A DNA stretch of 64,000 nt, taken from NCBI RefSeq assembly GCF_055900595.2, contig NZ_CM148325.1; one strand, written 5' to 3'. Within the stretch, counting starts at the first letter, position 1, and every line of letters begins with the position of its first letter. Shown here piece after piece: positions 11,509 to 33,477 of this stretch. A program made the translations under genes and the position numbers. The notes under the pieces were generated by a model. That model was not told the DNA's origin and searched no databases. It worked only from the letters and a program-made list of their open reading frames with translations.

Positions 11509-14349
11509 ATGAAGCCGCTCTCTTCACCGTTACAGCAGTACTGGCAGACCGTTGTTGAGCGGCTGCCAGCGCCTTTAGCCGAGGAATCACTTAGCGCACA
11601 GGCGAAGTCAGTACTTACCTTCAGTGATTTTGTGCAGGACAGCGTAATTGCGCATCCAGAGTGGCTGACGGAACTGGAAAGCCAGCCGCCGCAGGCCGAC
11701 GAATGGCAGCATTACGGTGCATGGTTGCAGAAGGCGCTCAGTGATGTAAGCGACGAAGCAGGGTTAATGCGTGAGCTGCGTCTGTTCCGGCGGCGCATTA
11801 TGGTGCGCATTGCCTGGGCGCAAACGCTGGCACTGGTTACTGAAGAGAGCATATTGCAGCAGCTCAGCCATCTGGCGGAGACATTGATTGTCGCCGCGCG
11901 TGACTGGCTGTATGAGGCCTGCTGCCGCGAGTGGGGTACGCCCTGCAATGCGCAGGGTGAAGCGCAACCGCTGCTGATTTTAGGCATGGGTAAACTGGGC
12001 GGCGGGGAGCTGAATTTTTCCTCAGATATCGATCTGATTTTTGTCTGGCCGGAACATGGTTGCACGCAGGGCGGACGCAGGGAACTGGATAACGCTCAGT
12101 TCTTTACCCGCATGGGTCAGCGGCTGATTAAAGTGCTGGATCAACCAACGCAGGATGGTTTTGTTTATCGCGTGGATATGCGACTGCGTCCGTTTGGCGA
12201 AAGTGGCCCGCTGGTGCTGAGCTTTGCGGCACTGGAAGACTATTACCAGGAGCAGGGGCGCGACTGGGAGCGTTACGCGATGGTCAAGGCGCGGATTATG
12301 GGGGATAGCGAAGGCGTCTATGCTAACGAGTTGCGTGCGATGCTGCGCCCGTTTGTTTTCCGCCGTTACATCGATTTCAGCGTCATCCAGTCGCTGCGCA
12401 ACATGAAAGGGATGATTGCCCGTGAAGTACGTCGTCGTGGTTTGACCGATAACATCAAACTTGGCGCGGGTGGCATTCGCGAAATTGAATTTATCGTCCA
12501 GGTATTCCAGCTCATTCGCGGCGGGCGCGAACCGTCGCTGCAATCGCGCTCTTTACTGCCAACGCTCAGCGCCATTGCCGCGCTGCATCTGCTTTCTGAA
12601 AACGATGCCGAACAATTGCGAGTGGCGTATCTCTTCCTGCGGCGTCTGGAAAACCTGCTGCAAAGCATTAACGACGAACAAACTCAGACGCTTCCTTCGG
12701 ATGAGCTTAACCGTGCGCGGCTGGCATGGGCAATGGATTTCGCGGACTGGCCGCAACTAACCGGGGCGCTGACCGGACATATGACCAATGTGCGCCGGGT
12801 GTTTAACGAATTGATTGGCGATGACGAAAGCGAAACACAGGAAGAGTCGCTATCGGAACAGTGGCGTGAGTTGTGGCAGGATGCGTTGCAGGAAGATGAC
12901 ACTACGCCAGTACTGGCGCATCTTAGCGAAGATGATCGCAAACAGGTGCTAACACTGATTGCCGATTTCCGCAAAGAGCTGGATAAGCGCACAATCGGGC
13001 CGCGAGGACGTCAGGTGCTCGACCATCTGATGCCGCATCTGCTAAGTGATGTCTGTGCGCGTGAAGACGCTGCTGTCACGCTGTCGCGCATTACGGCTTT
13101 GCTGGTGGGGATTGTTACCCGCACTACCTATCTTGAGCTGCTTAGTGAATTCCCCGCAGCGCTTAAGCATTTGATTTCGCTGTGCGCCGCATCGCCGATG
13201 ATTGCCAGCCAACTGGCGCGTTATCCATTATTGCTGGACGAACTGCTCGATCCGAACACTCTTTACCAGCCGACGGCGACGGATGCCTACCGTGATGAAC
13301 TGCGCCAGTATTTGCTGCGCGTGCCGGAAGATGACGAAGAACAACAGCTTGAGGCGCTGCGTCAGTTCAAACAGGCGCAACTGTTACGTATTGCGGCAGC
13401 GGATATCGCCGGTACGCTACCGGTAATGAAAGTGAGCGATCACTTAACCTGGCTGGCGGAAGCTATGATAGATGCCGTCGTTCAGCAGGCGTGGGTTCAA
13501 ATGGTTGCCCGCTACGGTAAACCGAATCACCTGAACGAACGCGAAGGGCGTGGTTTTGCGGTGGTCGGCTACGGCAAGCTGGGCGGCTGGGAGTTAGGCT
13601 ACAGTTCCGATCTTGACCTGATCTTCCTCCATGATTGCCCAATGGATGCGATGACTGACGGCGAGCGGGAAATCGACGGGCGACAGTTTTATCTGCGTCT
13701 GGCGCAACGCATTATGCACCTGTTCAGCACGCGAACTTCTTCCGGTATTTTGTACGAAGTGGATGCACGGCTGCGTCCGTCCGGGGCGGCGGGAATGCTG
13801 GTTACCTCTGCAGAAGCGTTTGCCGATTATCAGAAAAACGAGGCCTGGACGTGGGAGCATCAGGCGCTGGTGCGTGCGCGTGTAGTGTACGGCGATCCGC
13901 AGCTCACCGCGCACTTTGACGCGGTGCGTCGCGAGATTATGACGCTGCCGCGTGAAGGTAAAACTCTGCAAACGGAAGTGCGGGAAATGCGCGAGAAAAT
14001 GCGCGCGCATCTCGGCAATAAACATCGCGATCGCTTTGATATCAAAGCCGATGAAGGCGGAATTACCGATATCGAATTTATTACCCAATATCTGGTGTTG
14101 CGCTACGCTCATGAAAAACCGAAGTTAACGCGCTGGTCAGACAACGTGCGTATTCTGGAGCTGCTGGCGCAAAACGACATTATGGAAGAGCAGGAAGCGA
14201 TGGCGCTGACCCGTGCTTACACGACGCTGCGCGATGAACTTCATCATCTGGCATTACAGGAATTGCCGGGTCATGTGCCGGAAGATTGCTTTACCGCAGA
14301 GCGTGAACTGGTGCGGGCAAGCTGGCAGAAGTGGCTGGTGGAAGAATGA
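11509..14349 (+). CDS. glnE: glutamine synthetase adenylyltransferase/adenylyl-removing enzyme
   Basis: 946-aa product from ATG 11509 ([20 protein letters not shown]...); track ORF 11305 is an upstream in-frame extension overlapping ygiF. Confidence 0.92.
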
Positions 14350-14396
14350 AGTATGGTATTATCGCGCGCAAATTTTGAATCTCTCAGGAGACAGGA

Positions 14397-15830
14397 ATGA
14401 AAGTAACGCTGCCAGAGTTTGAACGTGCAGGAGTGATGGTGGTTGGTGATGTGATGCTGGATCGTTACTGGTACGGTCCCACCAGCCGTATCTCGCCGGA
14501 AGCGCCGGTGCCCGTGGTTAAAGTGAATACCATCGAAGAACGTCCGGGCGGCGCGGCTAACGTGGCGATGAATATCGCTTCTCTCGGTGCTAATGCACGC
14601 CTGGTCGGGTTGACGGGCATTGACGATGCGGCGCGCGCGCTGAGTAAATCTCTGGCCGACGTCAACGTCAAATGCGACTTCGTTTCTGTACCGACGCATC
14701 CGACCATCACCAAATTACGGGTACTTTCCCGCAACCAACAGCTGATCCGTCTGGATTTTGAAGAAGGTTTCGAAGGGGTTGATCCGCAGCCGCTGCACGA
14801 GCGGATTAATCAGGCGCTGAGTTCGATTGGCGCGCTGGTGCTCTCTGACTACGCGAAAGGTGCGCTGGCAAGCGTGCAGCAGATGATCCAACTGGCGCGT
14901 AAAGCGGGCGTTCCGGTGCTGATTGATCCAAAAGGCACCGATTTTGAGCGCTACCGCGGCGCTACGCTGTTAACGCCGAATCTCTCGGAATTTGAAGCTG
15001 TTGTCGGTAAATGTAAGACCGAAGAAGAGATTGTTGAGCGCGGCATGAAACTGATTGCCGATTACGAACTCTCGGCTCTGTTGGTGACCCGTTCCGAACA
15101 AGGGATGTCGCTGCTGCAACCGGGTAAAGAGCCGCTGCATATGCCAACCCAGGCGCAAGAAGTGTATGACGTCACCGGTGCGGGCGATACGGTGATTGGT
15201 GTGCTGGCAGCAACGCTGGCGGCGGGTAATTCGCTGGAAGAAGCCTGCTTCTTTGCCAACGCGGCGGCCGGTGTGGTGGTTGGCAAACTGGGAACATCCA
15301 CGGTTTCGCCGATCGAGCTGGAAAATGCAGTACGTGGACGTGCAGATACCGGCTTTGGTGTGATGACCGAAGAGGAACTGAAGCTTGCTGTAGCGGCGGC
15401 GCGTAAACGCGGTGAAAAAGTGGTGATGACCAATGGCGTCTTCGACATCCTGCACGCCGGGCACGTCTCCTATCTGGCAAATGCCCGCAAACTGGGTGAC
15501 CGCCTGATTGTCGCTGTGAACAGCGATGCCTCCACCAAACGGCTGAAAGGGGATTCCCGCCCCGTTAACCCTCTCGAACAGCGTATGATTGTGCTGGGGG
15601 CACTGGAAGCGGTCGACTGGGTGGTGTCGTTTGAAGAAGACACGCCGCAGCGCTTGATCGCCGGGATCTTGCCAGACCTGCTGGTGAAAGGCGGCGACTA
15701 TAAACCAGAAGAGATTGCCGGGAGTAAAGAAGTCTGGGCCAACGGTGGCGAAGTGTTGGTGCTCAACTTTGAAGACGGTTGCTCAACGACCAACATCATC
15801 AAGAAGATCCAACAGGATAAAAAAGGCTAA
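14397..15830 (+). CDS. hldE: bifunctional D-glycero-beta-D-manno-heptose-7-phosphate kinase / heptose-1-phosphate adenylyltransferase
   Basis: 477-aa [30 protein letters not shown]... Confidence 0.92.
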
Positions 15831-15909
15831 CCGGAAAGCGGTTCACAGATCTCGCTTCGAACCAGGCAGGCCTATTGACGCTGTTGTTTTTTCAACCTAA
15901 AGTAAAGGA

Positions 15910-16058
15910 ACAAGGGTAAGGGAGGATTTCTCCCCCCTCTGAATTGGTTGTTAATAAGCCTGGAAACTTACTAGTAACAACACAATCAGTATGATGACGA
16001 ACTTCATCATAACCCTTTCCTTCTATAAGGCCCCTTCTTCGGGAGGGGCTTTCCCGTT
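15910..16058 (+). ncRNA. sibD: Sib-family antisense antitoxin RNA (predicted), fully overlapping ibs copy 1
   Basis: Plus-strand promoter TTGACG(15875-80)-17nt-TAAAGT(15898-903); hairpin gcccct-tcttcggg-aggggc at 16029-16049 followed by T-rich tract. Ends approximate. Confidence 0.5.
15951..16010 (-). CDS. ibsD: Ibs-family type I toxin, 19 aa (MMKFVIILIVLLLVSFQAY)
   Basis: Minus-strand ATGATG at 16010, stop at 15951-15953; hydrophobic peptide matching the Ibs toxin pattern; symbol by position (ibsD/ibsE assignment uncertain). Confidence 0.7.
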   Translation of the reverse strand: MMKFVIILIVLLLVSFQAY

Positions 16059-16286
16059 TCAGCCCCTTGCTGACTCCCCGATTGTTGATGAGCGCCAGAC
16101 CCCGCGCAATGCTTTCCCAGAGGCAGTTTTGCCTTCCCCGAGCAGTCACGCAAAACGCTGCAACAGCCTGATCATTTGCAGTTTTTTGTGGAACACAGAT
16201 ATAAAAAATCCCCGGTTTTTTGGGCCAGGGATATGTGTTAATGAAACCTTCTTGACGCTGATTTTTTTTCAACCTAAAGTAAAGGA

Positions 16287-16434
16287 ACAAGGGTAAGGGA
16301 GGATTTCTCCCCCCTCTGAATGGCCGTTAATAAGCGTGGAAACTTATCAGTAACAGCACAATCAGTATGATGACGAACTTCATCATAACCCTTTCCTTAT
16401 GTAAGGCCCCTTCCTCGGGAGGGGCTTTCCCGTT
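16287..16434 (+). ncRNA. sibE: Sib-family antisense antitoxin RNA (predicted), copy 2
   Basis: Promoter TTGACG(16252-57)-17nt-TAAAGT(16275-80); terminator hairpin 16405-16425 + T tract. Ends approximate. Confidence 0.5.
16327..16386 (-). CDS. ibsE: Ibs-family type I toxin, 19 aa (MMKFVIILIVLLLISFHAY)
   Basis: Second repeat copy; minus-strand ATGATG at 16386, stop 16327-16329. Confidence 0.7.
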   Translation of the reverse strand: MMKFVIILIVLLLISFHAY

Positions 16435-16624
16435 TCAGCCCCTTGCTGACTCCCCGATTGTTGATGAGCGCCAGACCCCGCGCAATGCTTTCTCTTATGC
16501 AGTTTTCTCTTCCCCGAGTTGGCTCGCAAAACGCTGTAACAACCTGATCATTTGTACTTTTTAGCGGAACGCAGATATAAAAAATCCCCGGCTTTTTGGG
16601 CCAGGGATGTTCATAGTTGAAAAT

Positions 16625-18301
16625 TTATTCTATGTTTTCTGCGACGGGAGTTGTTGAGGTTAAGGGTGAAGTCAATGCCGCCAGTGAGCCGCCTGAAACG
16701 CCAATTTCATTGAGCAAGGAGTCAATCAGCGGTGCCTGTGTGCGGTAAGAAAGGGCGGCAGACAATGCCTGTTCTGCCAGGTTTCCGCCACTAACGCTGC
16801 CTGATGCCGCATCCCCCGCAGCACCACCTCGGTTTAATCCATCGACCTGAATAATCTTGATGCCGTCAATGGACTTCATCGGCTCAACGGATTTCTCTAT
16901 TACTGCAGGTAACGACTGTAATAGCGCCAGTTTGAATTTAAGGCTGGTTTGCTCGTCAGAAAGTACGTTGATAGCGTCGTTCAGCGCACGTTGCGCTTCT
17001 GCTTCCGCCAGGCCTTTTTTGCGTGTTGCTTCGGCTAACTCAACGATCGCCGCCGCCTGCATCTCTGCGGCTTCTTTCTCTGCGGCTTCTTTCTCTGCTT
17101 TCGCCCGCACGGTCAGTTCAACCGCTTTGGTTTCTGCATCCTGCGCGGCAGCGATTAGGGCAACTTGTTTAGCACGATCGGCTTCTGCGGTCTGGCGAGT
17201 GGTTTCTACGTTTTGCTGGGCGCTTACCGCTTCTGCAAGTGCAAGGTTGGCACGCGCTTCCGCTTGTGACTGCTGTTCCGATTTGGCGGCAATAGCGATC
17301 GATTTCGTCTGGTTGGCGATTTCGGTGACCTGCTGCTGTTCGATCTCTTTAATGCGAACTTCACGTTCAGCTTCAACTTTTCTGGAACGGACGACCTGTT
17401 CGCGGTCGATTTCCGTTTCCTGAATCTGTCGTTCAGCCAGAATTCGCGTCTGCTCTGCTTCCCGACGACGCTCGGCCTCAAAAGCCGCAATTTTCGCATT
17501 CTGCTCAGCGGTACGGGTTTTAACCTGCTGCTCCTGCTCAAGCGTCATAAACGCTTCTTGCTGTTCAATCTCCAGCTTCCGCGAAAGCGCATCACGGTTT
17601 TTCTCACGCACCGCAACTTCTACATCCTGTTCAACTTCGTTACGTTCGCGACGACGGCGCTCCGTCTCCTGCGTCAGCTTGGTTAAACCTTCGGCGTCAA
17701 AGGCGTTGTTAGGATTGAAATGTTCCTTCGACGTCTGGTTAAAGTTGGTAAGTGAAACGCTTTCCAGTTCCAGGCCGTTTTTCGACAGATCTTCAGCAAC
17801 GGTATTTTGTACGCCCTGCACGAAGTTCTCGCGGGTATCCTGTAACTCATGCATGGTCATTTGTGCAGCTGTTGCACGGAGGGCATCGACAAATTTATCT
17901 TCAACCAACATACGTAAGTCTTCAGGCGACAGGGTGCGTTGCCCCAGCGTCTGGGCGGCGGTGGCAATACCTTCCACTGACGGTTTTACCCGCACAAAGA
18001 AAGCGACAACGACATCGACGCGCATACGATCTTTCGTAATCAGGCTATCAATGGTTGAGCGGCTGACTTCCAGCTTCAGAGTATTCATATTGATGGGGAT
18101 TATTTCATGAAAGATCGGCATCACGATTGCGCCACCGCTCATTACCACTTTTTGCCCACCTAAACCAGTACGAACAAAAGCTTGCTCTGCCGAAGCGCGA
18201 CGATAGAGCCTGGCGAAAATAATTCCAATAATAAACAGAATGCATACGGCAATAATTGCGGTAAACATCCAGGAGGGCACAGAATTAACAATATCATCCA
18301 T
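16625..18301 (-). CDS. yqiK: SPFH/band-7 (flotillin-like) membrane protein YqiK
   Basis: 558-aa ORF; N-terminal TM, SPFH domain, long Ala/Glu/Gln-rich coiled-coil. Confidence 0.85.
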   Translation of the reverse strand: MDDIVNSVPSWMFTAIIAVCILFIIGIIFARLYRRASAEQAFVRTGLGGQKVVMSGGAIVMPIFHEIIPINMNTLKLEVSRSTIDSLITKDRMRVDVVVAFFVRVKPSVEGIATAAQTLGQRTLSPEDLRMLVEDKFVDALRATAAQMTMHELQDTRENFVQGVQNTVAEDLSKNGLELESVSLTNFNQTSKEHFNPNNAFDAEGLTKLTQETERRRRERNEVEQDVEVAVREKNRDALSRKLEIEQQEAFMTLEQEQQVKTRTAEQNAKIAAFEAERRREAEQTRILAERQIQETEIDREQVVRSRKVEAEREVRIKEIEQQQVTEIANQTKSIAIAAKSEQQSQAEARANLALAEAVSAQQNVETTRQTAEADRAKQVALIAAAQDAETKAVELTVRAKAEKEAAEKEAAEMQAAAIVELAEATRKKGLAEAEAQRALNDAINVLSDEQTSLKFKLALLQSLPAVIEKSVEPMKSIDGIKIIQVDGLNRGGAAGDAASGSVSGGNLAEQALSAALSYRTQAPLIDSLLNEIGVSGGSLAALTSPLTSTTPVAENIE

Positions 18302-18327
18302 TATTAAATTTCCTTTTGATTAATAAA

Positions 18328-18957
18328 TTACAGTATTTGGGGCCAGGGTTTTTTTTTCGCCAAATATCGCGTTGCAGAAAGTCGGCAAATAATTAATACT
18401 TTGTCTCCTTTAGTGAAAGTTTTTTCTTCTTCAGGTTCCAGTAGTAAATAATGTATTTGGCCAAATTGATCGGTGAGTTTTCCTTCACAGGGGTTACCTG
18501 AAGTGGCCTGATGTCCGGTAATTAATGCCATGCAGCCAATATATTCTTCTTCTGTAATAGCTGAACTATGGTCGCGTGGAATCCAGGGCGCAACTATTTT
18601 ACCGGTATAATGCACCGCAATAATCGTTAGCAGTAAACTGACAGGAACCACAAACAGATTTGTGAGTGGTGATTGCCAGACCATGATGCAGACCTGCTGT
18701 AGCAGGATGCCAATAAGGCCAAAAAAACCAGCATGTAAGCAGAGAACGACGAGAGCTGGCAATCTTCCAAAATTGAGATAATGAAGTGCCTGGCTAATAT
18801 GACCTGTGGTTATGGAATCATAATGGTCAAGATGTGCATCAAGAGCACCGGAAAGCATGTGACCGCAGATAAGTGCAAAAATTTCTAAAAGGCCGATCAA
18901 AAGTACAAAAGAAATAGCGAAAAGATAAGGGGTGTTATAGTCAGCGAATAAAATCAT
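18328..18957 (-). CDS. yqiJ: NfeD-like inner membrane protein YqiJ (partner of YqiK)
   Basis: 209-aa membrane ORF immediately upstream of yqiK in the same orientation. Confidence 0.82.
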
Positions 18958-19226
18958 ATGTCACTCCAATGTCCATTTAGTGACGCAATATTTATTTTGC
19001 GATAATTTCCTTGCTTACATTTATCTTTGTTAATAATAACACATGTTAGCGATGTTCTGAAAGAGAAAGTCTTTTAATGTTGTTTTTTTATTTTTCACTA
19101 AAAAGTGTGATCGGGAACAATATATTTACGCACGTTATGTTTAAAGGCACTACACTGATTGGGGAATACTGAAATCAGAAAAAGCATATGGCCTTAAAAG
19201 GTATGCGATAACCGGAGGATGTGCTT

Positions 19227-19427
19227 ATGGATCATAGTCTTAATTCTTTAAATAACTTCGATTTCCTGGCGCGTAGTTTTGCCAGAATGCACGCAGAAGG
19301 TCGCCCGGTCGATATTCTGGCCGTTACTGGTAACATGGATGAAGAACATAGAACCTGGTTTTGCGCACGTTATGCCTGGTATTGCCAACAGATGATGCAA
19401 ACCAGAGAACTGGAATTAGAACATTGA
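19227..19427 (+). CDS. glgS: surface composition regulator GlgS
   Basis: 66-aa [32 protein letters not shown]... Confidence 0.85.
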
Positions 19428-19431
19428 TATT

Positions 19432-19454
19432 ACGGGCCGTCTGGCCCGTTTTTG
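19432..19454. terminator. bidirectional Rho-independent terminator between convergent glgS and ubiK
   Basis: acgggcc-gtct-ggcccgt stem-loop followed by TTTTG. Confidence 0.5.
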
Positions 19455-19461
19455 TGGTGCT

Positions 19462-19761
19462 TTATTCTGCTTTATCAACCGGCGGGATAGCTGGAGGAGA
19501 TTGAAGTTCTGCTACCGGATTATTGCGCGCTTCCAGTTCGCTGATGCGTTGTTCCAGTAACGCCAGTTTTTCACGAGTCCGTAACAGGACTTGCGTCTGA
19601 ACGTCGAATTCTTCGCGGCTTACCAGATCGAGACGCGTCAACTGCGCTTGTAGGGTTTGGCGGATTTTTTTCTCCACATCTTCCCCGAACTCCCTGATTC
19701 CTTTAGGCATTGATTCGTGAACCTGGCGAGCGATTTGCTCAATTTTTTTCGGGTCAATCAT
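19462..19761 (-). CDS. ubiK: ubiquinone biosynthesis accessory factor UbiK (YqiC)
   Basis: [35 protein letters not shown]...; coiled-coil BMFP-like; start chosen internal to the 119-aa track ORF. Confidence 0.8.
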
Positions 19762-19883
19762 TGTAGTTTCCCTGTACTGATAGGTGTTGAGTGCCATTGT
19801 AGTGCGATAAGGGTAAGTCATAAACCAGAATTATGTGAAGCTATGCGTTGCTGCCGCTAATCATTAGCGTTATAGTGAATCCG

Positions 19884-20134
19884 CTTATTCTCAGGGCGGG
19901 GCGAAATTCCCCACCGGCGGTAAATCAACTCAGTTGAAAGCCCGCGAGCGCTTTGGGTGCGAACTCAAAGGACAGCAGATCCGGTGTAATTCCGGGGCCG
20001 ACGGTTAGAGTCCGGATGGGAGAGAGTAACGATTCTGTCGGGCATGGACCCGCTCACGTTATTTTGGCTATATGCCGCCACTCCTAAGACTGCCCTGATT
20101 CTGGTAACCATAATTTTAGTGAGGTTTTTTTACC
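19884..20134 (+). promoter_or_regulatory. FMN riboswitch (RFN element) in ribB leader (sroG region)
   Basis: Conserved RFN aptamer motifs (ttctcagggcggggcgaaattcccc...ggacagcagatccggtgtaattccggggccgacggttagagtccggatgggagag); preceded by promoter TTGCTG(19848)-17-TATAGT(19871). Confidence 0.75.
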
Positions 20135-20788
20135 ATGAATCAGACGCTACTTTCCTCTTTTGGTACGCCTTTCGAACGTGTTGAAAATGCACTGGCTGCG
20201 CTGCGTGAAGGACGCGGTGTAATGGTGCTTGATGATGAAGACCGTGAAAACGAAGGCGATATGATCTTCCCGGCAGAAACCATGACCGTTGAGCAGATGG
20301 CGCTGACCATTCGCCACGGTAGCGGTATTGTTTGCCTGTGCATTACTGAAGATCGCCGTAAACAACTCGATCTGCCAATGATGGTAGAAAATAACACCAG
20401 CGCCTATGGCACCGGTTTTACCGTGACCATTGAAGCGGCTGAAGGTGTGACTACCGGTGTTTCTGCCGCTGACCGTATTACTACCGTTCGCGCAGCGATT
20501 GCCGATGGCGCAAAACCTTCTGATCTGAATCGTCCTGGCCACGTTTTCCCACTGCGCGCGCAGGCGGGTGGTGTGCTGACGCGTGGCGGCCATACTGAAG
20601 CGACTATTGATCTGATGACGCTGGCAGGCTTTAAACCGGCTGGTGTGCTGTGTGAGCTGACTAATGACGATGGCACGATGGCGCGTGCACCAGAGTGCAT
20701 TGAGTTTGCCAATAAACACAATATGGCGCTCGTGACTATTGAAGACCTGGTGGCATACCGTCAGGCACATGAGCGTAAAGCTAGCTGA
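20135..20788 (+). CDS. ribB: 3,4-dihydroxy-2-butanone-4-phosphate synthase
   Basis: 217-aa [45 protein letters not shown]... Confidence 0.92.
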
Positions 20789-20820
20789 AAACCGCTGCTT
20801 AATTTACCGCGTTAATCAAT

Positions 20821-21528
20821 AAATATCCTCCGGCATAGCCGGAGGTTTTTCAAATGCGCCTGTAAGGCTCTGTTACCAGCCGCGCCCTAACAGGCGCATA
20901 CGATCTGACATTTGCATTCAACTTCGTTACTTACGGCCCGTAAACGGGCTGCCCGGATATGGAATCGATAACTGCTCCCCCATTTTATCCTCTTCAAGCT
21001 GGTGCTTTATGTAGTCCTGTATCTTCGCCGTGTTCTTACCCACCGTATCGACATAGTACCCTCGGCACCAGAACTCCCTGTTTCTGTATTTGAATTTCAA
21101 ATCCCCAAACTGCTCGTAAAGCATCAGACTGCTTTTCCCTTTCAGATATCCCATAAAGCCGGATACGCTCATTTTGGGTGGGATTTCCACAAGCATATGG
21201 ATATGATCTGCGCAGCACTCTGCTTCCAGAATCCGTACGCTTTTCCACTCACACAGCTTTCTCAAAATACTGCCTATCGCCCTACGCTTCTCTCCGTAAA
21301 ACGCCAGTCTTCGGTATTTCGGCGCAAAAACTATGTGATATTTACAGTTCCAGCGGGTGTGCGCTAAGCTCTTTTCGTCCCCCATTGGGACCCCCTTTTG
21401 ATTTCTTGTTTGACACTTGCAGTTGCCAGACCGCAAGGTGTTTTAACAAATCAAAAGGGGTTTTAATAACTGGCTCAAAGCTGAAAGCTTTCCGGAACCC
21501 CCAGCCTAGCTGGGGGTTTTCTGTGCAC
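20821..21528 (-). mobile_element. IS200 insertion sequence (~708 bp); ends inferred (+/-20 bp)
   Basis: 152-aa IS200 TnpA; left end (high coordinate) inferred from hairpins at 21495-21517 and 21391-21460, which match the recalled IS200 leader positions (nt 12-34 and 69-138). Confidence 0.65.
20927..21385 (-). CDS. tnpA: IS200 transposase TnpA (Y1/HUH)
   Basis: MGDEKSLAHTRWNCKYHIVFAPKYRR...HIHMLVEIPP...; 152 aa from second in-frame ATG. Confidence 0.9.
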   Translation of the reverse strand: MGDEKSLAHTRWNCKYHIVFAPKYRRLAFYGEKRRAIGSILRKLCEWKSVRILEAECCADHIHMLVEIPPKMSVSGFMGYLKGKSSLMLYEQFGDLKFKYRNREFWCRGYYVDTVGKNTAKIQDYIKHQLEEDKMGEQLSIPYPGSPFTGRK

Positions 21529-21530
21529 AA

Positions 21531-21565
21531 GAAACCGAAGCTATTACTGGCTTCGGTTTTTATTT
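21531..21565 (+). terminator. Rho-independent terminator, probably the native ribB terminator displaced by IS200
   Basis: gaaaccgaagc-tattactg-gcttcggttt followed by TTTATTTT, immediately outside the inferred IS200 left end. Confidence 0.5.
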
Positions 21566-21761
21566 TGCTCTTGTTATGCAAGATGTTAATTCCTCTTCTC
21601 TTTCTATGAGAAAATTTCATTAATATCAGGCATTCTTTTCCATTATGATCAAAATCATATAATTGTTCCGTTATTATGCGACCATATGAATATATCCGAA
21701 AAAGGATATGTGAATTTTATGCGCTAAATGTTTAGTATTGTTAAATATTAAGGGTAAAAGG

Positions 21762-21932
21762 ATGTTTATCGCCTGGTACTGGATTGTATTGATTGCTCTG
21801 GTTGTGGTGGGTTATTTACTGCATTTGAAACGTTATTGTCGGGCGTTTCGTCAGGACAGAGACGCACTGCTTGAAGCGCGGAATAAATACTTAAACAGTA
21901 CGAGAGAAGAGACAGCCGAGAAGGTAGAATAG
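21762..21932 (+). CDS. small (56 aa) single-TM membrane protein, unnamed
   Basis: RBS aagggtaaaagg-ATG; N-terminal hydrophobic helix then charged tail; followed by a 12-bp-stem hairpin (21950-21980). Confidence 0.4.
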   Translation: MFIAWYWIVLIALVVVGYLLHLKRYCRAFRQDRDALLEARNKYLNSTREETAEKVE

Positions 21933-21949
21933 GGCTTTAGTGAAGCTGG

Positions 21950-21980
21950 CAGAAGTTGTCCATGCGCTGGACAACTTCTG
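21950..21980. terminator. bidirectional terminator hairpin between small ORF and zupT
   Basis: cagaagttgtcc-atgcgct-ggacaacttctg perfect 12-bp stem, T-rich 3' flank. Confidence 0.55.
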
Positions 21981-21989
21981 ATGTTGCTT

Positions 21990-22763
21990 TTAACCAATTC
22001 CCGCCGTTTGTAGTAGCACTAAACTGAATCCCATCACTGACATTCCACATAGCACGCCATAGCTGGGGTTATTATTGGGGTCAATCTCTTTAGCTAGCGG
22101 CATTAATTCATCAACCGAGAGCGCCACCATAATTCCTGCAACCGCCGCCATGATTGCCGCCATGACCACCGGAGAAATCATGCTACCGAGGATTAACCAC
22201 GCCAGAACACCACCAAGAATTTCTGCCAGCCCAGAAATGCCCGCCCACAAAATTGCGGTGCGTTTTGACCCCGTTGCCGCGTAAACCGGCCCCGCAACTG
22301 CCAGACCTTCAGGAATATTATGCAATGCAACAGCCAGCGCGATGCCAAAGCCCAGCTCCAGGTTACTGCTCGCCGTGACAAAGGTGGCAATGCCTTCCGG
22401 GAAGTTATGCAGACTGATGCCGAGAGTGAGCAGAATGGCTGTGCGCTTGATCGATTTTGGCAACGGCTGCACCGATTTTTGCATTAAATCCTGCGGATGC
22501 GCATGTGGCAACATGCGGTCCAGACCAAAATAGCCAAGCAGACCGAAGATAAACATTCCATAACCCAGCACAGGCGACATTCCTTCGGCGGCTAATGCGG
22601 CAGGAAGCATTTCCATTAATGAGATGAGCAACATAATCCCCGCCGCAAATCCTAGCGAAAACGCCAGTAAGCGGTTCGAGGGTTTTTGTCCGAGAACGCC
22701 GAGAAACGCGCCAATAAACGTGGCTGCCCCCGCCAGTATGGTCAGAATGAGAGGTACTGACAT
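21990..22763 (-). CDS. zupT: ZIP-family zinc transporter ZupT
   Basis: 257-aa membrane ORF from [20 protein letters not shown]... Confidence 0.88.
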
Positions 22764-22878
22764 CGACAACTCCTTATAAATCTTTACCTTCAGGCAGATC
22801 GTCAAAATAACTGATGATCATCATCATTGTTATCCGGGTTCTTACTCCGCCGAACAAGCGTATTGTGAGGATATCAAA

Positions 22879-23694
22879 ATGACACCTTTAGTTAAGGATA
22901 TCATCATGTCTTCAACACGTATGCCAGCATTGTTTTTAGGTCACGGTAGTCCGATGAACGTGCTGGAAGATAATTTGTATACCCGCAGCTGGCAGAAGTT
23001 GGGGATGACATTGCCACGCCCGCAAGCGATTGTTGTGGTTTCGGCTCACTGGTTTACCCGTGGAACTGGAGTGACCGCGATGGAGACGCCGCCCACGATT
23101 CATGATTTTGGCGGTTTTCCGCAGGCGCTGTACGACACCCATTATCCTGCTCCGGGTTCGCCTGCGCTGGCACAGCGTCTGGTTGAGCTGTTAGCGCCGG
23201 TCCCTGTGACGCTGGATAAAGAAGCCTGGGGCTTTGACCACGGTTCCTGGGGCGTGCTGATTAAGATGTATCCTGACGCCGATATCCCGATGGTGCAGTT
23301 GAGTATCGACAGTACCAAACCTGCCGCCTGGCACTTTGAGATGGGGCGTAAACTGGCGGCTCTGCGAGACGAAGGAATAATGTTGGTCGCCAGCGGTAAC
23401 GTGGTGCATAACCTGCGTACGGTGAAGTGGCACGGTGATAGTTCACCGTATCCTTGGGCGATGTCGTTTAATGAGTATGTGAAAGCGAATCTGACGTGGC
23501 AAGGACCGGTAGAACAGCATCCTCTGGTGAATTATCTCGACCATGAAGGTGGCGCGTTATCGAACCCAACGCCAGAGCACTATCTGCCGTTGTTGTATGT
23601 CTTAGGTGCGTGGGATGGGCAGGAGCCAATTACCATTCCGGTCGATGGTATAGAAATGGGCAGTTTAAGTATGTTGTCGGTGCAGATAGGCTAA
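22879..23694 (+). CDS. ygiD: 4,5-DOPA dioxygenase extradiol-like protein YgiD
   Basis: ORF ...MPALFLGHGSPMNVLED...; start could be the internal ATG at 22909. Confidence 0.8.
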   Translation: MTPLVKDIIMSSTRMPALFLGHGSPMNVLEDNLYTRSWQKLGMTLPRPQAIVVVSAHWFTRGTGVTAMETPPTIHDFGGFPQALYDTHYPAPGSPALAQRLVELLAPVPVTLDKEAWGFDHGSWGVLIKMYPDADIPMVQLSIDSTKPAAWHFEMGRKLAALRDEGIMLVASGNVVHNLRTVKWHGDSSPYPWAMSFNEYVKANLTWQGPVEQHPLVNYLDHEGGALSNPTPEHYLPLLYVLGAWDGQEPITIPVDGIEMGSLSMLSVQIG

Positions 23695-23731
23695 TAATTA
23701 CCGGATGGCGAGTGCCATCCGGTATCATGGC

Positions 23732-24892
23732 TTATTCAACAAAAATATGTGGATAAAACCGAGACATATCCTGGGTGATCAATGCACGGTCTTCACGAAT
23801 GCCAATTCCGGCAGGTTGATCGTTCACCAGCCAGCTACCAATCAGCATATAGCTATCGCCGAATTTTGGTAACGGGTGGAATTGCTGAACAATCATCCCT
23901 TCTTCGCCATACGGACCTTCTGCTGCTTCAATGGTTTTGCCGTTCTCAATGATCGACACGTTTGCGCCTTCACGGGAGAAGATCGGTTTAACCACATATT
24001 TTTCCATTTGCGGATGATCATCTTCCGCAAAATAAGCGGGCAGCAGGTTCGGGTGATTCGGGAACATCTCCCACAGTAGCGGCAGAAGCGCTTTGTTGGA
24101 GATAATGCTCTTCCACGCCGGTTCCAGCCAGCGTACGCCTGCATCCTCCAGCTTGGTGGAGAACATCTCACGCAGCATAAATTCCCACGGATACAGCTTG
24201 AACAGGTTAGAAATCACCTGATCCTGTAAATCCGTGAACTGACCTTTTTCGCCTAAACCGATATCGTCGATGTAGAGGAATTCAGTAGCGATTTCAGCTT
24301 CTGTCGCGCAGTCCTGCAAATACTGAATGGTTCCGCGATCTTCCACCGTGTCGCGACAGCAGGTGAGATGCAGCAACTGGAAGCCATACTGTTCACGCAG
24401 CTGGACAAAGCGATCGATCAGCTTCTCTTGCAGACTGTTAAACTGGTCGCTGCCTTCCGGCAGGTTACCGGCGTTAAGCTGATCTTCCAGCCAGATCCAC
24501 TGAAAGAATGCGGCTTCATACAGTGACGTTGGCGTATCGGCGTTATTTTCCAGAAGTTTAGGTTCGCCAGTACCATCCCACGCCAGATCAAGACGCGAAT
24601 AAAGCGATGGCTGGTGAGTCAGCCATGACTGGCGCACAAAACTCCAGGTGTGTTTTGGAATGCGGAATTTGGTCATCAGCTCATCGCTGGCGATCACTTT
24701 TTCAACCACTTTCAGGCACATCTGGTGCAGTTCGGCGGTGACTTCTTCCAGCTTTTCAACCTGGGAGAGGGTCAACTTGTAGTAAGCATCTTCACACCAG
24801 TATGGCTCTCCGTACATGGTGTGAAAATTGAAACCGTATTCGTGGGCTTTTTCGCGCCAGTCCGGACGCTCGGTAATACTGACTCTTTCCAT
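23732..24892 (-). CDS. ygiC: glutathionylspermidine synthase-like ATP-grasp protein YgiC
   Basis: 386-aa [35 protein letters not shown]... Confidence 0.88.
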
Positions 24893-24897
24893 CGGTA

Positions 24898-25569
24898 TCA
24901 GCCACCCATTGAACGAGAAGAGGTGCCAGTTGCGCTACGCTGCATGGTGCTTTGTTTGGCAACAGATTCACCAAAGCCACCGCGGGTAACGGTAGTGGTG
25001 GTCGCCGGTTTCGGTGCCATGGCTGTCTTCGGTACGGTCATGGTGCGGCCTGGCTGCGCTGCGCCATAGTTTTTACCGGTGGCATCAGTATATTTACCGT
25101 AAGCCGGGCTGGCTGGGTTTTTCGAGGAGAACAGCGGCTGTTGTGCAAAGCCCGCGCCGCCGCCCATCAGACGCCCCATCATGTAACCGGCCATCAGCGG
25201 CATCCAGAAACTCCCGCTGGATTGCTGGGCCTGCGCCTGGTTTTCTGGTGCCATACCAGCCTGGGCTGGTGCCTGCTGGCACTGGCCTTCGCCAAATTCA
25301 GCAATACAGTCTTCACGAGTGGCGTATTTCGGCGCAGTACGTTCGGCTTCTTTCAGCGCATTGTTGTACGCAGTGGTACATTCTGCGCTTTTGCCTGGGT
25401 TTGCGGCTGAGCAGTCATCAGCATTTTGATACAGAGACACTGTCTCATCACTCTTTTCACAGCCTGCCAGCATAAAAACAGTGGCAACAGCAAGAGCGAC
25501 AGGTGTCAGATGGCGTGCGCTCCAGTTTTTGCGGAACGATGCGTGGCGTATGGATTTTGTCCGTTTCAT
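24898..25569 (-). CDS. ygiB: DUF1190 lipoprotein-like protein YgiB
   Basis: [37 protein letters not shown]...; co-directional with tolC and ygiC. Confidence 0.82.
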
Positions 25570-25716
25570 TTTTGTCTTCCGGGACCAGTGGTAAATACCC
25601 ATCAGAATAGAGGATGGCTGGTCGAAATTGAAGCGGGAAGGGGGAAGAATGCGGCAGATAACCCGTATCTTTACGTTGCCTTACGTTCAGACGGGGCCGA
25701 AGCCCCGTCGTCAGCA

Positions 25717-27198
25717 TCAGTTACGGAAAGGGTTATGACCGTTACTGGTAGTCGTGCGTGCGGATGCTTGCTGAACGGCTGGGGCCGGGCTATCTGGTGC
25801 ATAACCATCAGCAATAGCATTTTGTTCTGGCGTTTGCGGCGCAACGTTTTCTGGATTAGTGGAAACCGGTTTGCTCAGCGCATTGTTCAGTGCCAGCAGA
25901 TCCTGCTCGTTCAACGTACCCAGAGCTGATTTAATATTCAACTGGTTAATCAGGTAGTTATAACGCGCATTCGCCAGCTCTTGCTTGGCGTTGTACAGCG
26001 TGGTGGTGGCATCCAGCACATCAACAATGGTACGCGTACCGACCGAGTAGCCCGCTTCCATCGCGTCTAATGAGCTTTGAGCGGAAACTACGGCTTGTTT
26101 GTAGGCGTTAATGCTACTGATAGAAGCATTAATATTGTTGAAGGAGGAACGTACGGTTTGCACGACGCTACGATGGGCGCTTTCCAGTTGCTCACTGGCA
26201 CCAACAAAGTTGTACTGGGCCTGTTTCACCTGCGAGTTAACCATTCCGCCCTGATAAATCGGCAGCGAGAAGCTCAGACCAACTTTGTTCTGGCCCATAT
26301 TGCTATCGTCATACTGGGTACCAGCGGCACCACGGGTTTTCGAACCGCTATATGAGGTGTCAGAAATCCCGGTAGAAGCCGTTAAATCCAGAGTCGGTAA
26401 GTGACCATCCTGCGCCTGGCGAATTTGCTCGCGCGCCAGGTCCTGGCTCAAACGTGCCTGTAACAGCGACAGGTTGCGTTTTTCGGCTTCTTTCAGCAGC
26501 GCGTTAACCGGCTGTGGTTTGTCGGTTTTAAAGTTATCGACATTCAGTGCCGCCAGTTCCGGATAGTAATTACCGGTGATCTGACGCAGTTGCTCTACAG
26601 CGTTATCGAGGTTATTACGTGCGGTCACTTCATTCGCCAGCACGGTATCGTACTGTGCACGGGCGTTCTGCACGTCGGTGATCGCCACCAGGCCCACGTT
26701 AAAACGTTGAGTGGTTTGATCTAACTGACGGTAGATCGCTTCTTTTTGCGCCTGCGTATAGGAAAGAACATCAATGGCATTCAACACGTTGAAATAAGCA
26801 GTCGCGGTGTTGAGGATCAAGGTTTGTTGATCGGTCTGATACGTGACGTCCTGAATACCCGCTGCTTTTTCCTGTAGCGTTAACGCACGCCATTTCGACA
26901 TATCAAAAATGGATTGAGTTAACTGCAGGGACGCACTGGTCGCGTTAGAGTTGATGCCGTTCGCGTCGCGGTAGCCGTTGCTATAGGTGTAATCTGCACC
27001 TAAACCTAGCTGTGGCAGTAATGGACTGCGCGCTTCATTAATTTTTTCAAAGGCAGCATCACGATCGGCGGCAGACTTACGCAATTCCGGGTTACTAAGG
27101 CGTGCTTGCTGATAAACTTGCATCAGGTTCTCGGCCTGGCTCAACGTACTGAACCCAGAAAGGCTCAGGCCGATAAGAATGGGGAGCAATTTCTTCAT
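25717..27198 (-). CDS. tolC: outer membrane efflux channel TolC
   Basis: 493-aa product from MKKLLPILIGLSLSGFS...; track ORF has a 13-codon upstream extension. Confidence 0.93.
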   Translation of the reverse strand: MKKLLPILIGLSLSGFSTLSQAENLMQVYQQARLSNPELRKSAADRDAAFEKINEARSPLLPQLGLGADYTYSNGYRDANGINSNATSASLQLTQSIFDMSKWRALTLQEKAAGIQDVTYQTDQQTLILNTATAYFNVLNAIDVLSYTQAQKEAIYRQLDQTTQRFNVGLVAITDVQNARAQYDTVLANEVTARNNLDNAVEQLRQITGNYYPELAALNVDNFKTDKPQPVNALLKEAEKRNLSLLQARLSQDLAREQIRQAQDGHLPTLDLTASTGISDTSYSGSKTRGAAGTQYDDSNMGQNKVGLSFSLPIYQGGMVNSQVKQAQYNFVGASEQLESAHRSVVQTVRSSFNNINASISSINAYKQAVVSAQSSLDAMEAGYSVGTRTIVDVLDATTTLYNAKQELANARYNYLINQLNIKSALGTLNEQDLLALNNALSKPVSTNPENVAPQTPEQNAIADGYAPDSPAPAVQQASARTTTSNGHNPFRN

Positions 27199-27402
27199 TT
27201 GCATTCCTTGTGGTGAAGCAGTATTTAGCGCGATCAAACTGTAAAATTATTGCGGATTCTAGCAGAAGCCGCTACCGCAAAAGGTTGGCGTTACGTGCCA
27301 TAGGGCGTTAATGTGCCTCAATTTAACACATGACTGCTCAAACGGCAGTCAAACGTCGCTGAAATTCACATTTAATTCACTATTAGTGCCAGGACATTAA
27401 CA

Positions 27403-28032
27403 ATGCTTAAGCCAGACAACCTGCCCGTTACTTTTGGCAAAAACGATGTTGAAATTATTGCACGAGAAACACTTTATCGCGGCTTTTTTTCATTAGATCT
27501 TTATAGATTTCGTCATCGTCTATTCAACGGGCAAATGAGTCGTGAGGTACGGCGGGAAATTTTTGAGCGCGGTCACGCCGCAGTCTTGCTACCCTTTGAC
27601 CCAGTGCGCGATGAAGTTGTGCTGATTGAGCAGATTCGGATTGCCGCGTATGACACCAGCGAAACCCCCTGGCTACTGGAGATGGTGGCCGGGATGATTG
27701 AAGAGGGTGAAAGTGTGGAAGATGTCGCCCGTCGCGAAGCGATTGAAGAGGCGGGACTGATAGTCAAACGGACCAAACCGGTGTTAAGTTTCCTGGCAAG
27801 CCCTGGGGGCACCAGTGAGCGTTCGTCAATTATGGTGGGCGAAGTGGACGCCACGACCGCAAGCGGTATTCACGGTCTGGCTGATGAAAACGAAGATATT
27901 CGCGTTCATGTGGTAAGCCGGGAACAGGCATACCAATGGGTAGAAGAGGGGAAAATCGACAACGCAGCGTCGGTCATCGCTTTGCAATGGCTGCAGCTGC
28001 ATCATCAAGCGTTAAAAAATGAGTGGGCATAA
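27403..28032 (+). CDS. nudF: ADP-ribose pyrophosphatase (Nudix)
   Basis: 209-aa ORF with Nudix box ([22 protein letters not shown]). Confidence 0.9.
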
Positions 28033-28455
28033 ATGAAGCGTTACACACCTGACTTTCCTGAAATGATGCGCCTGTGCGAGATGAACTTTTCACAATTGCG
28101 GCGTTTGTTACCGCGCAATGACGCACCCGGCGAAACTGTAAGCTATCAGGTGGCAAACGCACAATATCGGCTAACGATTGTGGAATCGACCCGATACACT
28201 ACCCTGGTGACAATCGAACAGACTGCGCCCGCGATCAGTTACTGGAGCCTTCCGTCAATGACGGTGCGTCTGTATCATGACGCGATGGTGGCTGAAGTGT
28301 GTTCAAGTCAGCAGATTTTTCGCTTCAAAGCGCGGTATGATTATCCTAATAAAAAGTTGCATCAACGCGACGAAAAGCATCAAATTAACCAGTTTTTAGC
28401 GGACTGGTTGCGATACTGTTTAGCACATGGAGCGATGGCGATTCCGGTTTATTAG
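28033..28455 (+). CDS. yqiB: DUF1249 protein YqiB
   Basis: 140-aa ORF abutting nudF stop. Confidence 0.82.
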
Positions 28456-28479
28456 CGTCGTGAAACCTAAGGACACCAT

Positions 28480-29307
28480 TTGGAAAGCCTGTTAACCCTT
28501 CCTCTGGCTGGTGAGGCCAGAGTCAGGATTTTACAAATTACCGACACTCACCTGTTTGCGCAAAAGCACGAAGCCCTGTTGGGGGTAAATACCTGGGAAA
28601 GCTACCAGGCGGTGCTGGAGGCGATTCGTCCACACCAGCACGAATTCGACCTGATTGTCGCGACCGGTGATTTAGCGCAGGATCAATCCTCTGCGGCCTA
28701 TCAGCATTTCGCTGAAGGCATCGCAAGTTTTCGTGCGCCCTGCGTCTGGCTGCCGGGCAACCACGATTTTCAGCCTGCGATGTACAGCGCGCTACAGGAT
28801 GCGGGGATCTCCCCGGCGAAGCGGGTGTTTATTGGTGAGCAATGGCAAATCCTGTTGCTGGATAGCCAGGTGTTTGGCGTGCCGCACGGTGAGCTGAGCG
28901 AGTTTCAGCTTGAGTGGCTGGAACGTAAACTGGCTGATGCGCCAGAACGCCATACGTTGCTGCTGCTGCACCATCATCCGTTGCCTGCGGGCTGTAGCTG
29001 GCTTGACCAACACAGTCTGCGTAACGCGGGCGAACTGGATAACGTGCTGGCGAAGTTTCCGAACGTTAAATACTTGCTGTGTGGACATATCCATCAGGAG
29101 CTGGATCTCGACTGGAATGGTCGCCGCCTGCTGGCAACGCCATCGACCTGTGTACAGTTTAAGCCGCATTGTTCCAACTTTACGCTGGACACCATCGCGC
29201 CTGGCTGGCGTACGCTCGAGTTACATGCTGATGGTACGCTGACCACCGAGGTGCACCGCCTGGCGGACACACGTTTCCAACCTGATACCGCTTCAGAAGG
29301 CTACTGA
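28480..29307 (+). CDS. cpdA: 3',5'-cyclic AMP phosphodiesterase (metallophosphoesterase)
   Basis: 275-aa ORF with GDLAQD and GNHD motifs. Confidence 0.9.
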
Positions 29308-29888
29308 TGTCTACGCTTCTTTATTTACACGGTTTCAACAGTTCGCCGCGCTCTGCAAAAGCGAGTTTGTTGAAAAACTGGCTGGCGGAACATCACCCTG
29401 ACGTTGAGATGATCATTCCGCAGTTACCACCGTACCCTTCCGATGCGGCAGAACTGCTGGAATCCATTGTCCTGGAACATGGCGGCGATTCGCTGGGGAT
29501 CGTCGGTTCATCACTGGGGGGATATTACGCCACCTGGTTGTCGCAATGTTTTATGCTGCCCGCCGTGGTGGTAAACCCAGCGGTGCGCCCGTTTGAACTG
29601 CTGACGGACTATCTCGGTCAGAACGAGAACCCCTACACCGGGCAGCAATATGTGCTAGAGTCACGCCATATTTACGATCTCAAAGTCATGCAGATTGACC
29701 CGCTGGAAGCGCCGGATTTGATTTGGCTGCTGCAACAGACGGGAGATGAAGTGCTGGATTACCGCCAGGCGGTGGCGTACTACGCTTCCTGCCGCCAGAC
29801 TGTTATAGAAGGCGGCAACCATGCATTCACAGGCTTCGAAGATTATTTCAACCCGATCGTCGATTTTCTTGGTCTGCACCATCTCTGA
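29307..29888 (+). CDS. yqiA: esterase YqiA (alpha/beta hydrolase)
   Basis: 193-aa [22 protein letters not shown]...; GSSLGG nucleophile elbow. Confidence 0.85.
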
Positions 29889-29913
29889 CGATCAACTCGA
29901 ATTGCTAACTTAA

Positions 29914-31809
<1,896 letters not shown>

Positions 31810-31856
31810 AGGAAAGAACATTGCCCGGTCAGGATGGCCGGGCAAACAAGGCAGGA

Positions 31857-32171
31857 TTAAATCCCTGGCTGCAGAATACGAATATTCATCTCCAGCACGT
31901 CGCCTTTTACGGCTTCGCTGTACGCCTTCATGTGCGGGGTTTGCAGATGCGCTTCAAGGTGCGCGATGCTTTCCCACTGCTCAATCATCACGATAGAATC
32001 CGGTGCCATAGACTGGAAACTCACGCCAGCAGCACAATCCACCATTGGCGCATAGCCGTGGCAACCTTCTTCTTTCAGTACGGTTGGAACGATTTTAGCA
32101 AACTGATCCAACACTGCCTGACGGTGATGTTGACCAGGACGAGTACGGATTTCTGCGATTACTGTAATCAT
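31857..32171 (-). CDS. ygiN: quinol monooxygenase YgiN (ABM domain)
   Basis: 104-aa ORF MITVIAEIRTRPGQHHRQAVLDQF... Confidence 0.85.
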   Translation of the reverse strand: MITVIAEIRTRPGQHHRQAVLDQFAKIVPTVLKEEGCHGYAPMVDCAAGVSFQSMAPDSIVMIEQWESIAHLEAHLQTPHMKAYSEAVKGDVLEMNIRILQPGI

Positions 32172-32201
32172 GGTTAACTCCTTCTAAAGCCAGAGCTCTA
32201 G

Positions 32202-32783
32202 TTAACCAAAAATTTCCACAAGATGCTTGCGATATTCTTCAGTATAGCGGGGAACATCAGGCATTTTTATCACGTCATTAGCGATAAATGTCGGCAGCGG
32301 TTCCATACCAAGGAATTGGTTTGCTTTATGGAATGGTAGATACACACCGTCAACGCCAACCCCGTGGAAGAACTGATCTTTTTCGGTGAAAGCTTCCATT
32401 GGTGCGTTCCAGGTCAGGGAAAGCATATATTTTTTACCTTGTACCAGACCGCCAGAACCGTATTTTTTCGACGGATCTTTGCGGGTACGACCATCGCTGG
32501 CATACAGCGTACCGTGACCTTCGGTGAATACATCATCAATGTATTTTTTCACCGTCCACGGCGCGCCCATCCACCAGCCTGGCATCTGCCAGATCACCAC
32601 ATCAGCCCAGAGAAAGTTTTGTACTTCCGCTTTGACATCGTAGTCGCTGTCGGCGCGAACGATGCGGACATCATGCCCGAGGTCGCGCAGCGTGCCATCC
32701 GCGACTTCGGTCAGGGTGTCGTTCAGTTGACCATTGGAGTGGGCGAATTTTTTCGCGCCGTTGATAATCAGGATGTTGCTCAT
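32202..32783 (-). CDS. mdaB: NADPH:quinone oxidoreductase MdaB
   Basis: 193-aa flavodoxin-like ORF MSNILIINGAKKFAHSNGQLNDTL... Confidence 0.9.
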   Translation of the reverse strand: MSNILIINGAKKFAHSNGQLNDTLTEVADGTLRDLGHDVRIVRADSDYDVKAEVQNFLWADVVIWQMPGWWMGAPWTVKKYIDDVFTEGHGTLYASDGRTRKDPSKKYGSGGLVQGKKYMLSLTWNAPMEAFTEKDQFFHGVGVDGVYLPFHKANQFLGMEPLPTFIANDVIKMPDVPRYTEEYRKHLVEIFG

Positions 32784-33099
32784 TTTTTAACCTCAAGGTG
32801 AGACGTTTGCCGACTATAGTACGTCACAGAGCGGTACGGTGAAATTAGCAAAATGTGCAAACTCTTTTGCGAATTTAGCAAAAGTCTGATCTTGCTCCGA
32901 TTCACCGATGCAGGATAAATATTTTCTGAAAATGACAATACTGATAGCCATTCCTCATAATTCCTACTCGCACCGGATTAATTTACAGGTTTGGTTCGGT
33001 TTTTTGGGGATTAAAAATATGGCGTTGGATAAGTAAAAATGAAAATATCAACGCGTCACGTTGATAATTATAAATGGATTTTTATGAGCGTGCTAACAT

Positions 33100-33432: not shown

Positions 33433-33438
33433 TAAAAT

Positions 33439-33468: not shown

Positions 33469-33477
33469 ACAGAGAAG

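Follow-up and report, generated by a model that had tools for sequence, protein, structure and literature searches.

In Escherichia coli K-12 MG1655 (NC_000913.3), a fimbrial operon lies between the ubiK (yqiC) and glgS genes, in the order ubiK - ygiL - yqiG::IS2I - yqiH - yqiI - glgS. The question raised by the locus described here is what it means that, in another E. coli strain, the same two genes are found next to each other with nothing but a short spacer between them: was a fimbrial island lost from this place, or was it never there? We analysed a 64-kb stretch of DNA, called here the window in its full length, in which glgS (plus strand) and ubiK (minus strand) run convergently with their stop codons only 34 bp apart, as read from the sequence and from the list of open reading frames (Table 1); the RefSeq annotation of the 99.97% identical strain Z0117EC0005 has gene calls identical to those of the window. 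A preliminary description of this DNA had already pointed out the convergent pair with its 34-bp gap, and had placed ygiL-yqiGHI with an IS2 copy between both genes on the K-12 map; the two statements proved right, and K-12, once checked, does not have the direct glgS-ubiK adjacency. Very probably, as far as gene order, sequence comparison and outgroups can tell, the window carries the ordinary ancestral and never-occupied layout of the convergent glgS/ubiK pair of Enterobacteriaceae.

Table 1. Features of the glgS/ubiK neighbourhood, in positions of the 64-kb window
Feature	Position	Strand	Evidence
yqiK (flotillin family), 558 aa	16625..18301	-	ORF; annotated in near-identical Z0117EC0005
yqiJ	18328..18957	-	ORF; Pfam YqiJ_N + YqiJ_OB
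glgS CDS, 66 aa	19227..19427	+	ORF; Pfam GlgS PF08971, residues 1-66 of 66, E=1e-45
Spacer between both stop codons, 34 bp	19428..19461	.	direct reading; outgroup spacers 28-73 bp
Intrinsic-terminator-like hairpin, putative glgS terminator	19432..19453	+	terminator scan, fold energies, conserved stem
74-bp segment, equivalent of the K-12 island position	19457..19530	.	blastn breakpoints 19456|19457 and 19530|19531
ubiK (yqiC) CDS, 99 aa	19462..19761	-	ORF; Pfam BMFP PF04380, residues 1-78, E=2e-27
FMN riboswitch (ribB leader)	19883..20031	+	Rfam RF00050, 120.9 bits
ribB	20135..20788	+	ORF; annotation of homologous loci
IS200-family insertion, ~711 bp, 7-bp boundary ambiguity	20824..21527	-	absent from K-12 and Z0117EC0005
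tnpA of the IS200 element	20927-21385	-	Pfam Y1_Tnp, E=8e-37
STnc490 RNA of the IS200 element	21395-21518	-	Rfam, 146 bits
yqiD (small protein)	21762..21932	+	ORF; annotated in K-12, Z0117EC0005, O157:H7
zupT	21990..22763	-	ORF; annotation of homologous loci

In the window, ubiK and glgS, which border the island in K-12, are contiguous, with 34 bp here vs. 6.6 kb there, and no trace of the island was found either at the junction, where the segment 19428-19530 holds no ygiL or yqiI remnants, or elsewhere in the window, where tblastn with the K-12 YgiL, YqiH and YqiI queries (E<=1e-3) returned no fimbrial homologue over the 64 kb. The short gap and the empty search together bear out the earlier statement that no fimbrial cluster is present here, and, given this empty search, a relocation of the operon to another place within the 64 kb was tried as an explanation and rejected. 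In addition, the junction is of the type common to the outgroups in its gene order, its hairpin core and the tail of its UbiK protein, all of which are described below.

The contiguous junction is by no means rare in the species, being found in 2,062 of 5,426 complete E. coli genomes (38%), among them UTI89 and O157:H7, with one complete genome 100% identical across the junction query. The K-12-type yqiH-yqiI genes occur in 3,356 of the 5,426 (62%), as two allelic classes of at least 99% and about 91% identity, and the genomes with the direct junction and those with the K-12-type genes together make up about all genomes; the class of about 91% has the junctions of K-12 and the same 291-nt ubiK, along with an intact usher. 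These counts also dispose of the idea that a fimbrial cluster was collapsed or lost in assembling the window, an artefact for which we found no supporting point and to which we give practically no probability: the same junction is present in 2,062 genomes that were finished independently, including one with 99.97% identity over the flanking ~12 kb, and in outgroup species as well.

For the polarity of the change, 80 UbiK loci of other species were retrieved, a set that does not include E. fergusonii, E. marmotae or E. ruysiae. An adjoining glgS was detected in 18 of the 80, and in all 18 it was convergent with ubiK, with 28-73 bp between the stops: 28 bp in E. albertii, 31 bp in Raoultella, 32-33 bp in seven Citrobacter loci (six species-level genomes), 34 bp in the GTDB E. 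coli representative, 39 bp in Superficieibacter, 58 bp in Klebsiella spallanzanii, 71-72 bp in Pseudocitrobacter, and 73 bp in Salmonella enterica subsp. diarizonae and arizonae. An equivalent order of glgS and yqiC has been described in S. Typhimurium (Carrica et al. 2011, PMC3107778). No fimbrial chaperone gene follows ubiK in any of these 80 loci, and 11 of the 80 have one beyond ribB, at the site used by UTI89. The proteins agree with the gene order: the UbiK tail of the window fits the cross-genus consensus ...(K/S)PAPAIPPVD..., which the K-12 tail does not, and the PAIPPVD motif is common to the window, Citrobacter, Salmonella and Enterobacter, with a shortened form in E. albertii; the E. 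fergusonii UbiK, seen as a protein only and not as a locus, also has the ancestral-type tail. From the outgroup order together with the tail type of the window, we infer by parsimony, with one genome per outgroup species, that the direct adjacency and the tail of the window are ancestral and the K-12 arrangement is derived. The empty-site configuration claimed in the preliminary description is thus upheld by the outgroups as a true ancestral empty site and not a deletion.

A secondary loss would give the same gene order, if the lineage of the window had once had a K-12-type island and then lost it by deletion or through replacement by an empty-site allele. Fimbrial operons are often lost or inactivated, the usher of K-12 itself being disrupted by IS2; recombination at the glgS-ubiK locus is evidently active; and an allelic exchange is conceivable, given that the window shares 96-100% identity with UTI89 and O157 across the glgS-ubiK-ribB core, against 79-95% for the neighbouring yqiK. 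However, a simple deletion cannot restore the 22 codons of the ancestral UbiK tail, nor the ancestral flanks shared with E. albertii and other genera, and the window, as said, retains nothing of an island. The only route of loss that fits the data is replacement by an ancestral-type allele, which would leave the site ancestral-type regardless. We therefore consider such a loss very unlikely and retain the never-occupied site as the reading of this locus.

If the window is the ancestral form, what happened in K-12? The breakpoints between both sequences can be placed to the nucleotide. On the glgS side, the homology with K-12 ends at 19456, just 3 nt past the T-run of the hairpin, and on the other side it resumes at 19531, the exact border of ubiK codons 77 and 78, so that window positions 19457-19530 have no alignment to K-12, and 74 bp in the window correspond to 6,639 bp in K-12, or 5,303 bp once IS2 and its GTTAT duplication are set aside. 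The difference between K-12 and the window is, then, a replacement and not a clean insertion. A plain insertion event that duplicated its target at the island edges was ruled out, given the 74 replaced bp, the diverged homologous flanks and the lack of repeats; the only target duplication seen is the GTTAT of IS2, inside yqiG. Within the replaced segment, ubiK codons 78-99 (19465-19530) encode the ancestral-type tail in the window, and in the K-12 form these last 22 codons are replaced by another tail of 19 codons, leaving UbiK with 99 residues in the window vs. 96 in K-12 and with different C-terminal tails. The break falls where the Pfam BMFP domain (residues 1-78) ends, and likewise where the coiled-coil helix predicted for Salmonella YqiC, spanning residues 49-79, comes to its end (PMC3107778); hence, the exchanged part is only the tail outside the conserved domain.

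The flanks of the K-12 island also carry a distinct signal. The K-12 segment has 40.2% GC vs. 49-50% in its flanks, and, when K-12 was aligned with three empty-site strains (the window, UTI89 and O157:H7), the substitutions private to K-12 were found to be 12 on the glgS side, confined to the last 72 bp, and 12 on the ubiK side, confined to the first 103 bp and causing no amino-acid change; further out, at least 300 bp are free of them. Both stretches of K-12, with 82% and 88% identity to the window, are about 85% identical to E. coli and E. albertii alike, while the window and E. albertii share 91-96% identity there. This pattern of divergence is probably the signature of a foreign haplotype imported by homologous recombination. 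A haplotype made up of a glgS 3' end, a terminator, the AT-rich operon and a ubiK 3' part would have entered some E. coli lineages ready-made, through one crossover within glgS and another within ubiK, from a donor no less divergent than E. albertii, and the import would have overwritten the last 22 ubiK codons with the foreign 19-codon tail. Part of the divergence of the flanks could also come, rather than from a single import, from recombination having long been suppressed near an old indel.

The donor haplotype was not found when the K-12 ubiK tail and ubiK-ygiL spacer were compared by blastn with the 80 outgroup loci, in which only the conserved part of ubiK was matched, and among 5.8 billion proteins the K-12-type UbiK tail appeared in E. 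coli/Shigella entries only, plus one diverged version. The latter, ending in ...ENRSTVTVVKDDQETLPPTL, belongs to an enterobacterium (locus L088, Logan SRR33454298, 152-846) whose locus consists of ubiK, a 191-bp spacer with a GGGCC hairpin, a convergent glgS and yqiJ, and no island; its GlgS has 70 aa and a divergent C-terminus. Given that a diverged K-12-like tail exists at an island-free locus, the K-12 tail is a genuine UbiK variant and not a read-through into island DNA. This enterobacterium was rejected as the donor itself, being too distant with 77-82% nucleotide identity to E. coli; the lineage from which the K-12 ubiK 3' end came may be a relative of it. In its strongest form, the proposal is that the K-12-type operon was imported as a complete foreign glgS'-operon-'ubiK haplotype and that, in consequence, ~62% of E. 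coli would carry a chimeric UbiK with a xenologous tail of 19 residues. We regard this full version as unlikely and put it forward for what it would imply: the window would carry the "native" E. coli UbiK, K-12, in which UbiK was characterised, would have the chimeric form, and the two tail forms might differ in function, for instance in the formation of the UbiK-UbiJ complex or in membrane association.

The preliminary description also proposed that a single bidirectional terminator hairpin separates the two stops. The single hairpin was found: ACGGGCC-GTCT-GGCCCGT at 19432-19449, followed by a T-run, with a 7-bp stem of 6 G-C pairs and a 4-nt loop, starting 4 nt past the glgS stop. Its folding energy is -16.1 kcal/mol on the plus strand and -15.4 on the minus strand (z = -2.8 and -3.6 vs. 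shuffles, with equally good folds in 2 of 200 shuffles). On the glgS strand the tail after the hairpin is TTTTGTGG, and the hairpin followed by UUUUGUGG has the build of a canonical intrinsic terminator, with a stem-loop, its stem conserved in orthologous loci, and a U-tract, and would presumably function as one. On the ubiK strand the same hairpin starts 12 nt downstream of the ubiK stop, and its tail is AAUAUCAAUG, in which 4 of 10 positions are U and none form a run. The terminator scan matched the plus strand only and called no terminator on the ubiK strand; the bidirectional part of the proposal finds no U-tract on both strands in the window, the T-run being present on the glgS strand alone.

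The stem itself is well conserved. The GGGCC-N4-GGCCC core is kept in Escherichia, Citrobacter, Salmonella and Raoultella, and with N5 in Klebsiella, while the loops vary across orthologous loci (GTCT, TGAT, ATTT, TTGC, GTCA); Superficieibacter and Pseudocitrobacter have different hairpins in the equivalent position. The possibility that this one hairpin is a genuine bidirectional intrinsic terminator, ending both the glgS and the ubiK transcripts, draws on its being the sole stable structure of the 34-bp spacer, with similar energies on both strands, on its retention between the convergent genes across genera, and on the Citrobacter and Raoultella orthologues, in which an A-run upstream and a T-run downstream make a more symmetric hairpin of the classic bidirectional design; in addition, yqiC is treated as monocistronic in PMC3107778. 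Against it, besides the scan and the missing U-run on the ubiK strand of the E. coli window, stands K-12, where the hairpin still adjoins glgS, with its stem intact and a different loop, although ubiK has moved 6.6 kb away. As it stays with glgS after the displacement of ubiK, the hairpin would primarily be the glgS terminator. Bidirectional termination in E. coli is thus plausible, if somewhat less probable than its alternative.

In the comparison of the junction with K-12 and with strains causing extraintestinal disease (ExPEC), suggested in the preliminary description as a check, K-12 indeed differs, but UTI89, an ExPEC strain, has the direct glgS/ubiK junction too. In UTI89 a homologous operon, known in B2 strains as ExPEC adhesin I and described as missing from both K-12 and O157:H7 (Antao et al. 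2009, PMC2771359), is located between ribB and yqiD, ~1.3 kb away from the glgS/ubiK junction, and its products have amino-acid identities to K-12 of 60% (YgiL), 50% (YqiH) and 36% (YqiI). Since the ExPEC operon occupies another site and the direct junction is kept, comparing K-12 with ExPEC does not separate strains at this junction. The UTI89-type operon is present in 994 complete genomes, including UTI89, ATCC 11775 and ST131, and the ribB-yqiD spacer is contiguous in 4,429; the direct glgS/ubiK junction is kept in all 994 carriers of the UTI89-type operon, and therefore ~1,068 genomes (~20%) have neither operon, O157:H7 and the window being examples. It is already published that the Yqi fimbriae of phylogroup B2 and the Yqi-like fimbriae of A, B1, D and E are closely related, lie at different loci and are mutually exclusive (Wurpel 2013, PMC3559732), and our counts confirm this mutual exclusion.

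In the window, no four-gene chaperone-usher operon exists between ribB and yqiD. Instead, the intergenic place where B2 strains carry the Yqi/EA-I operon holds an IS200 copy, recognised as a member of IS200/IS605 by its Y1 (HuH) transposase, its size of ~0.7 kb and the structured RNA at the IS200 5' end; apart from it, the ribB-yqiD spacer of the window is collinear with those of K-12 and Z0117EC0005. The element lies downstream of the ribB stop (20788) and ahead of the ribB terminator hairpin (AAACCGAAGC...GCTTCGGTTTTT, from ~21531), so the ribB transcripts would need to cross IS200 in antisense to reach their own terminator. At this ribB-yqiD position an IS is absent from all 5,426 complete E. 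coli genomes, including the eight that are otherwise ~100% identical; copies 99.9% identical to it are found elsewhere in related genomes, with up to ~17 copies in the lineage of the window. As a separate observation, a YqiH-like chaperone gene (40-56% amino-acid identity) is found ~1.8 kb beyond ribB in loci L007, L012, L016, L024, L026, L042, L061, L072 and L082, from Citrobacter, Enterobacter, Lelliottia, Leclercia, Pseudocitrobacter and Klebsiella spallanzanii; to judge from these loci, the site beyond ribB may be an old and widely shared location for the YqiH-type fimbrial family.

As to the strain itself, E. coli Z0117EC0005, isolated from a dog in Korea, matches the window with 99.97% identity across ~12 kb surrounding the junction (in the region 13000-26000). 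In 12 kb of core genes (the tolC-parE region, window 22000-34000), eight complete genomes are ~100% identical and one 99.0%, so that 9 of 5,425 complete genomes reach at least 99%, with a handful at 98.1-98.3% and the rest at 96.3% or below. With the bulk of E. coli at 96.3% or below, the strain belongs to a rare and divergent lineage. MFDS1022581, a ~98% relative, has the operon on the ribB side, its adhesin gene carrying an IS2 copy, and the lineage of the window has none.

Some further features of the window were recorded in passing. YqiK has 558 aa in the window vs. 553 aa in K-12, and the 3' part of its gene (16625-17200) is only 79-89% identical in nucleotides to K-12, UTI89 and O157:H7, a divergence far above that of its neighbours. 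Two tandem copies of the type I Sib antitoxin RNA/Ibs toxin system (15875-16025 and 16252-16401, plus strand; Rfam SIB_RNA, 143 and 147 bits) lie in a ~377-bp repeat between hldE and yqiK, where one ibs gene is annotated in UTI89 and two in K-12, O157:H7 and Z0117EC0005. An Rfam match to RNA-OUT, the antisense RNA of IS10 (57015-57084, plus strand, 97 bits), hints at an element of the IS10/Tn10 type in this region.

The weight of these results is small overall, given that the window shows an ordinary ancestral configuration and that the polymorphism had been described before. They do correct a K-12-centred expectation: at glgS/ubiK, it is the reference strain that appears derived, and the direct convergence of both genes appears ancestral, besides being common. 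Whether a genome has the Yqi-like or the Yqi/EA-I operon is a known marker of lineage, and the strain of the window, having neither, is without the Yqi adhesin type. What is mildly new is that the acquisition of the K-12-type island seems to have rewritten the C-terminus of UbiK, with sharp recombination breakpoints inside glgS and ubiK, and that ~20% of complete genomes have neither operon; the location of the ExPEC operon at a site other than glgS/ubiK is a modest addition.

Compared with known systems, the closest is the K-12 Yqi-like operon (ygiL-yqiG-yqiH-yqiI; PMC3559732), whose locus is exactly that of the window; the window is its unoccupied allele and, where the operon is present, it takes the place of the 74 bp that include the UbiK tail and comes with diverged flanks of ~72 and 103 bp. 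The Yqi/EA-I operon of UTI89, ATCC 11775 and ST131 (PMC2771359) is homologous, also has four genes and belongs to the same neighbourhood; it differs in lying at ribB|yqiD and not at ubiK|glgS, and is absent from the window, whose ribB-yqiD site holds only IS200. The yqiC-glgS region of Salmonella Typhimurium (PMC3107778) is alike in that ubiK/yqiC is divergent from ribB and convergent with glgS, and its yqiC product also has 99 aa and a ...PAIPPV... tail, with a GGGCC/GGCCC hairpin in the spacer, whereas the loci of the Salmonella subspecies differ by their longer spacer of 73 bp with extra sequence. Lastly, the bidirectional terminators of convergent genes share with the window the single GC-rich hairpin between two converging stops, with the difference that the E. 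coli window has a U-tract on one strand only.
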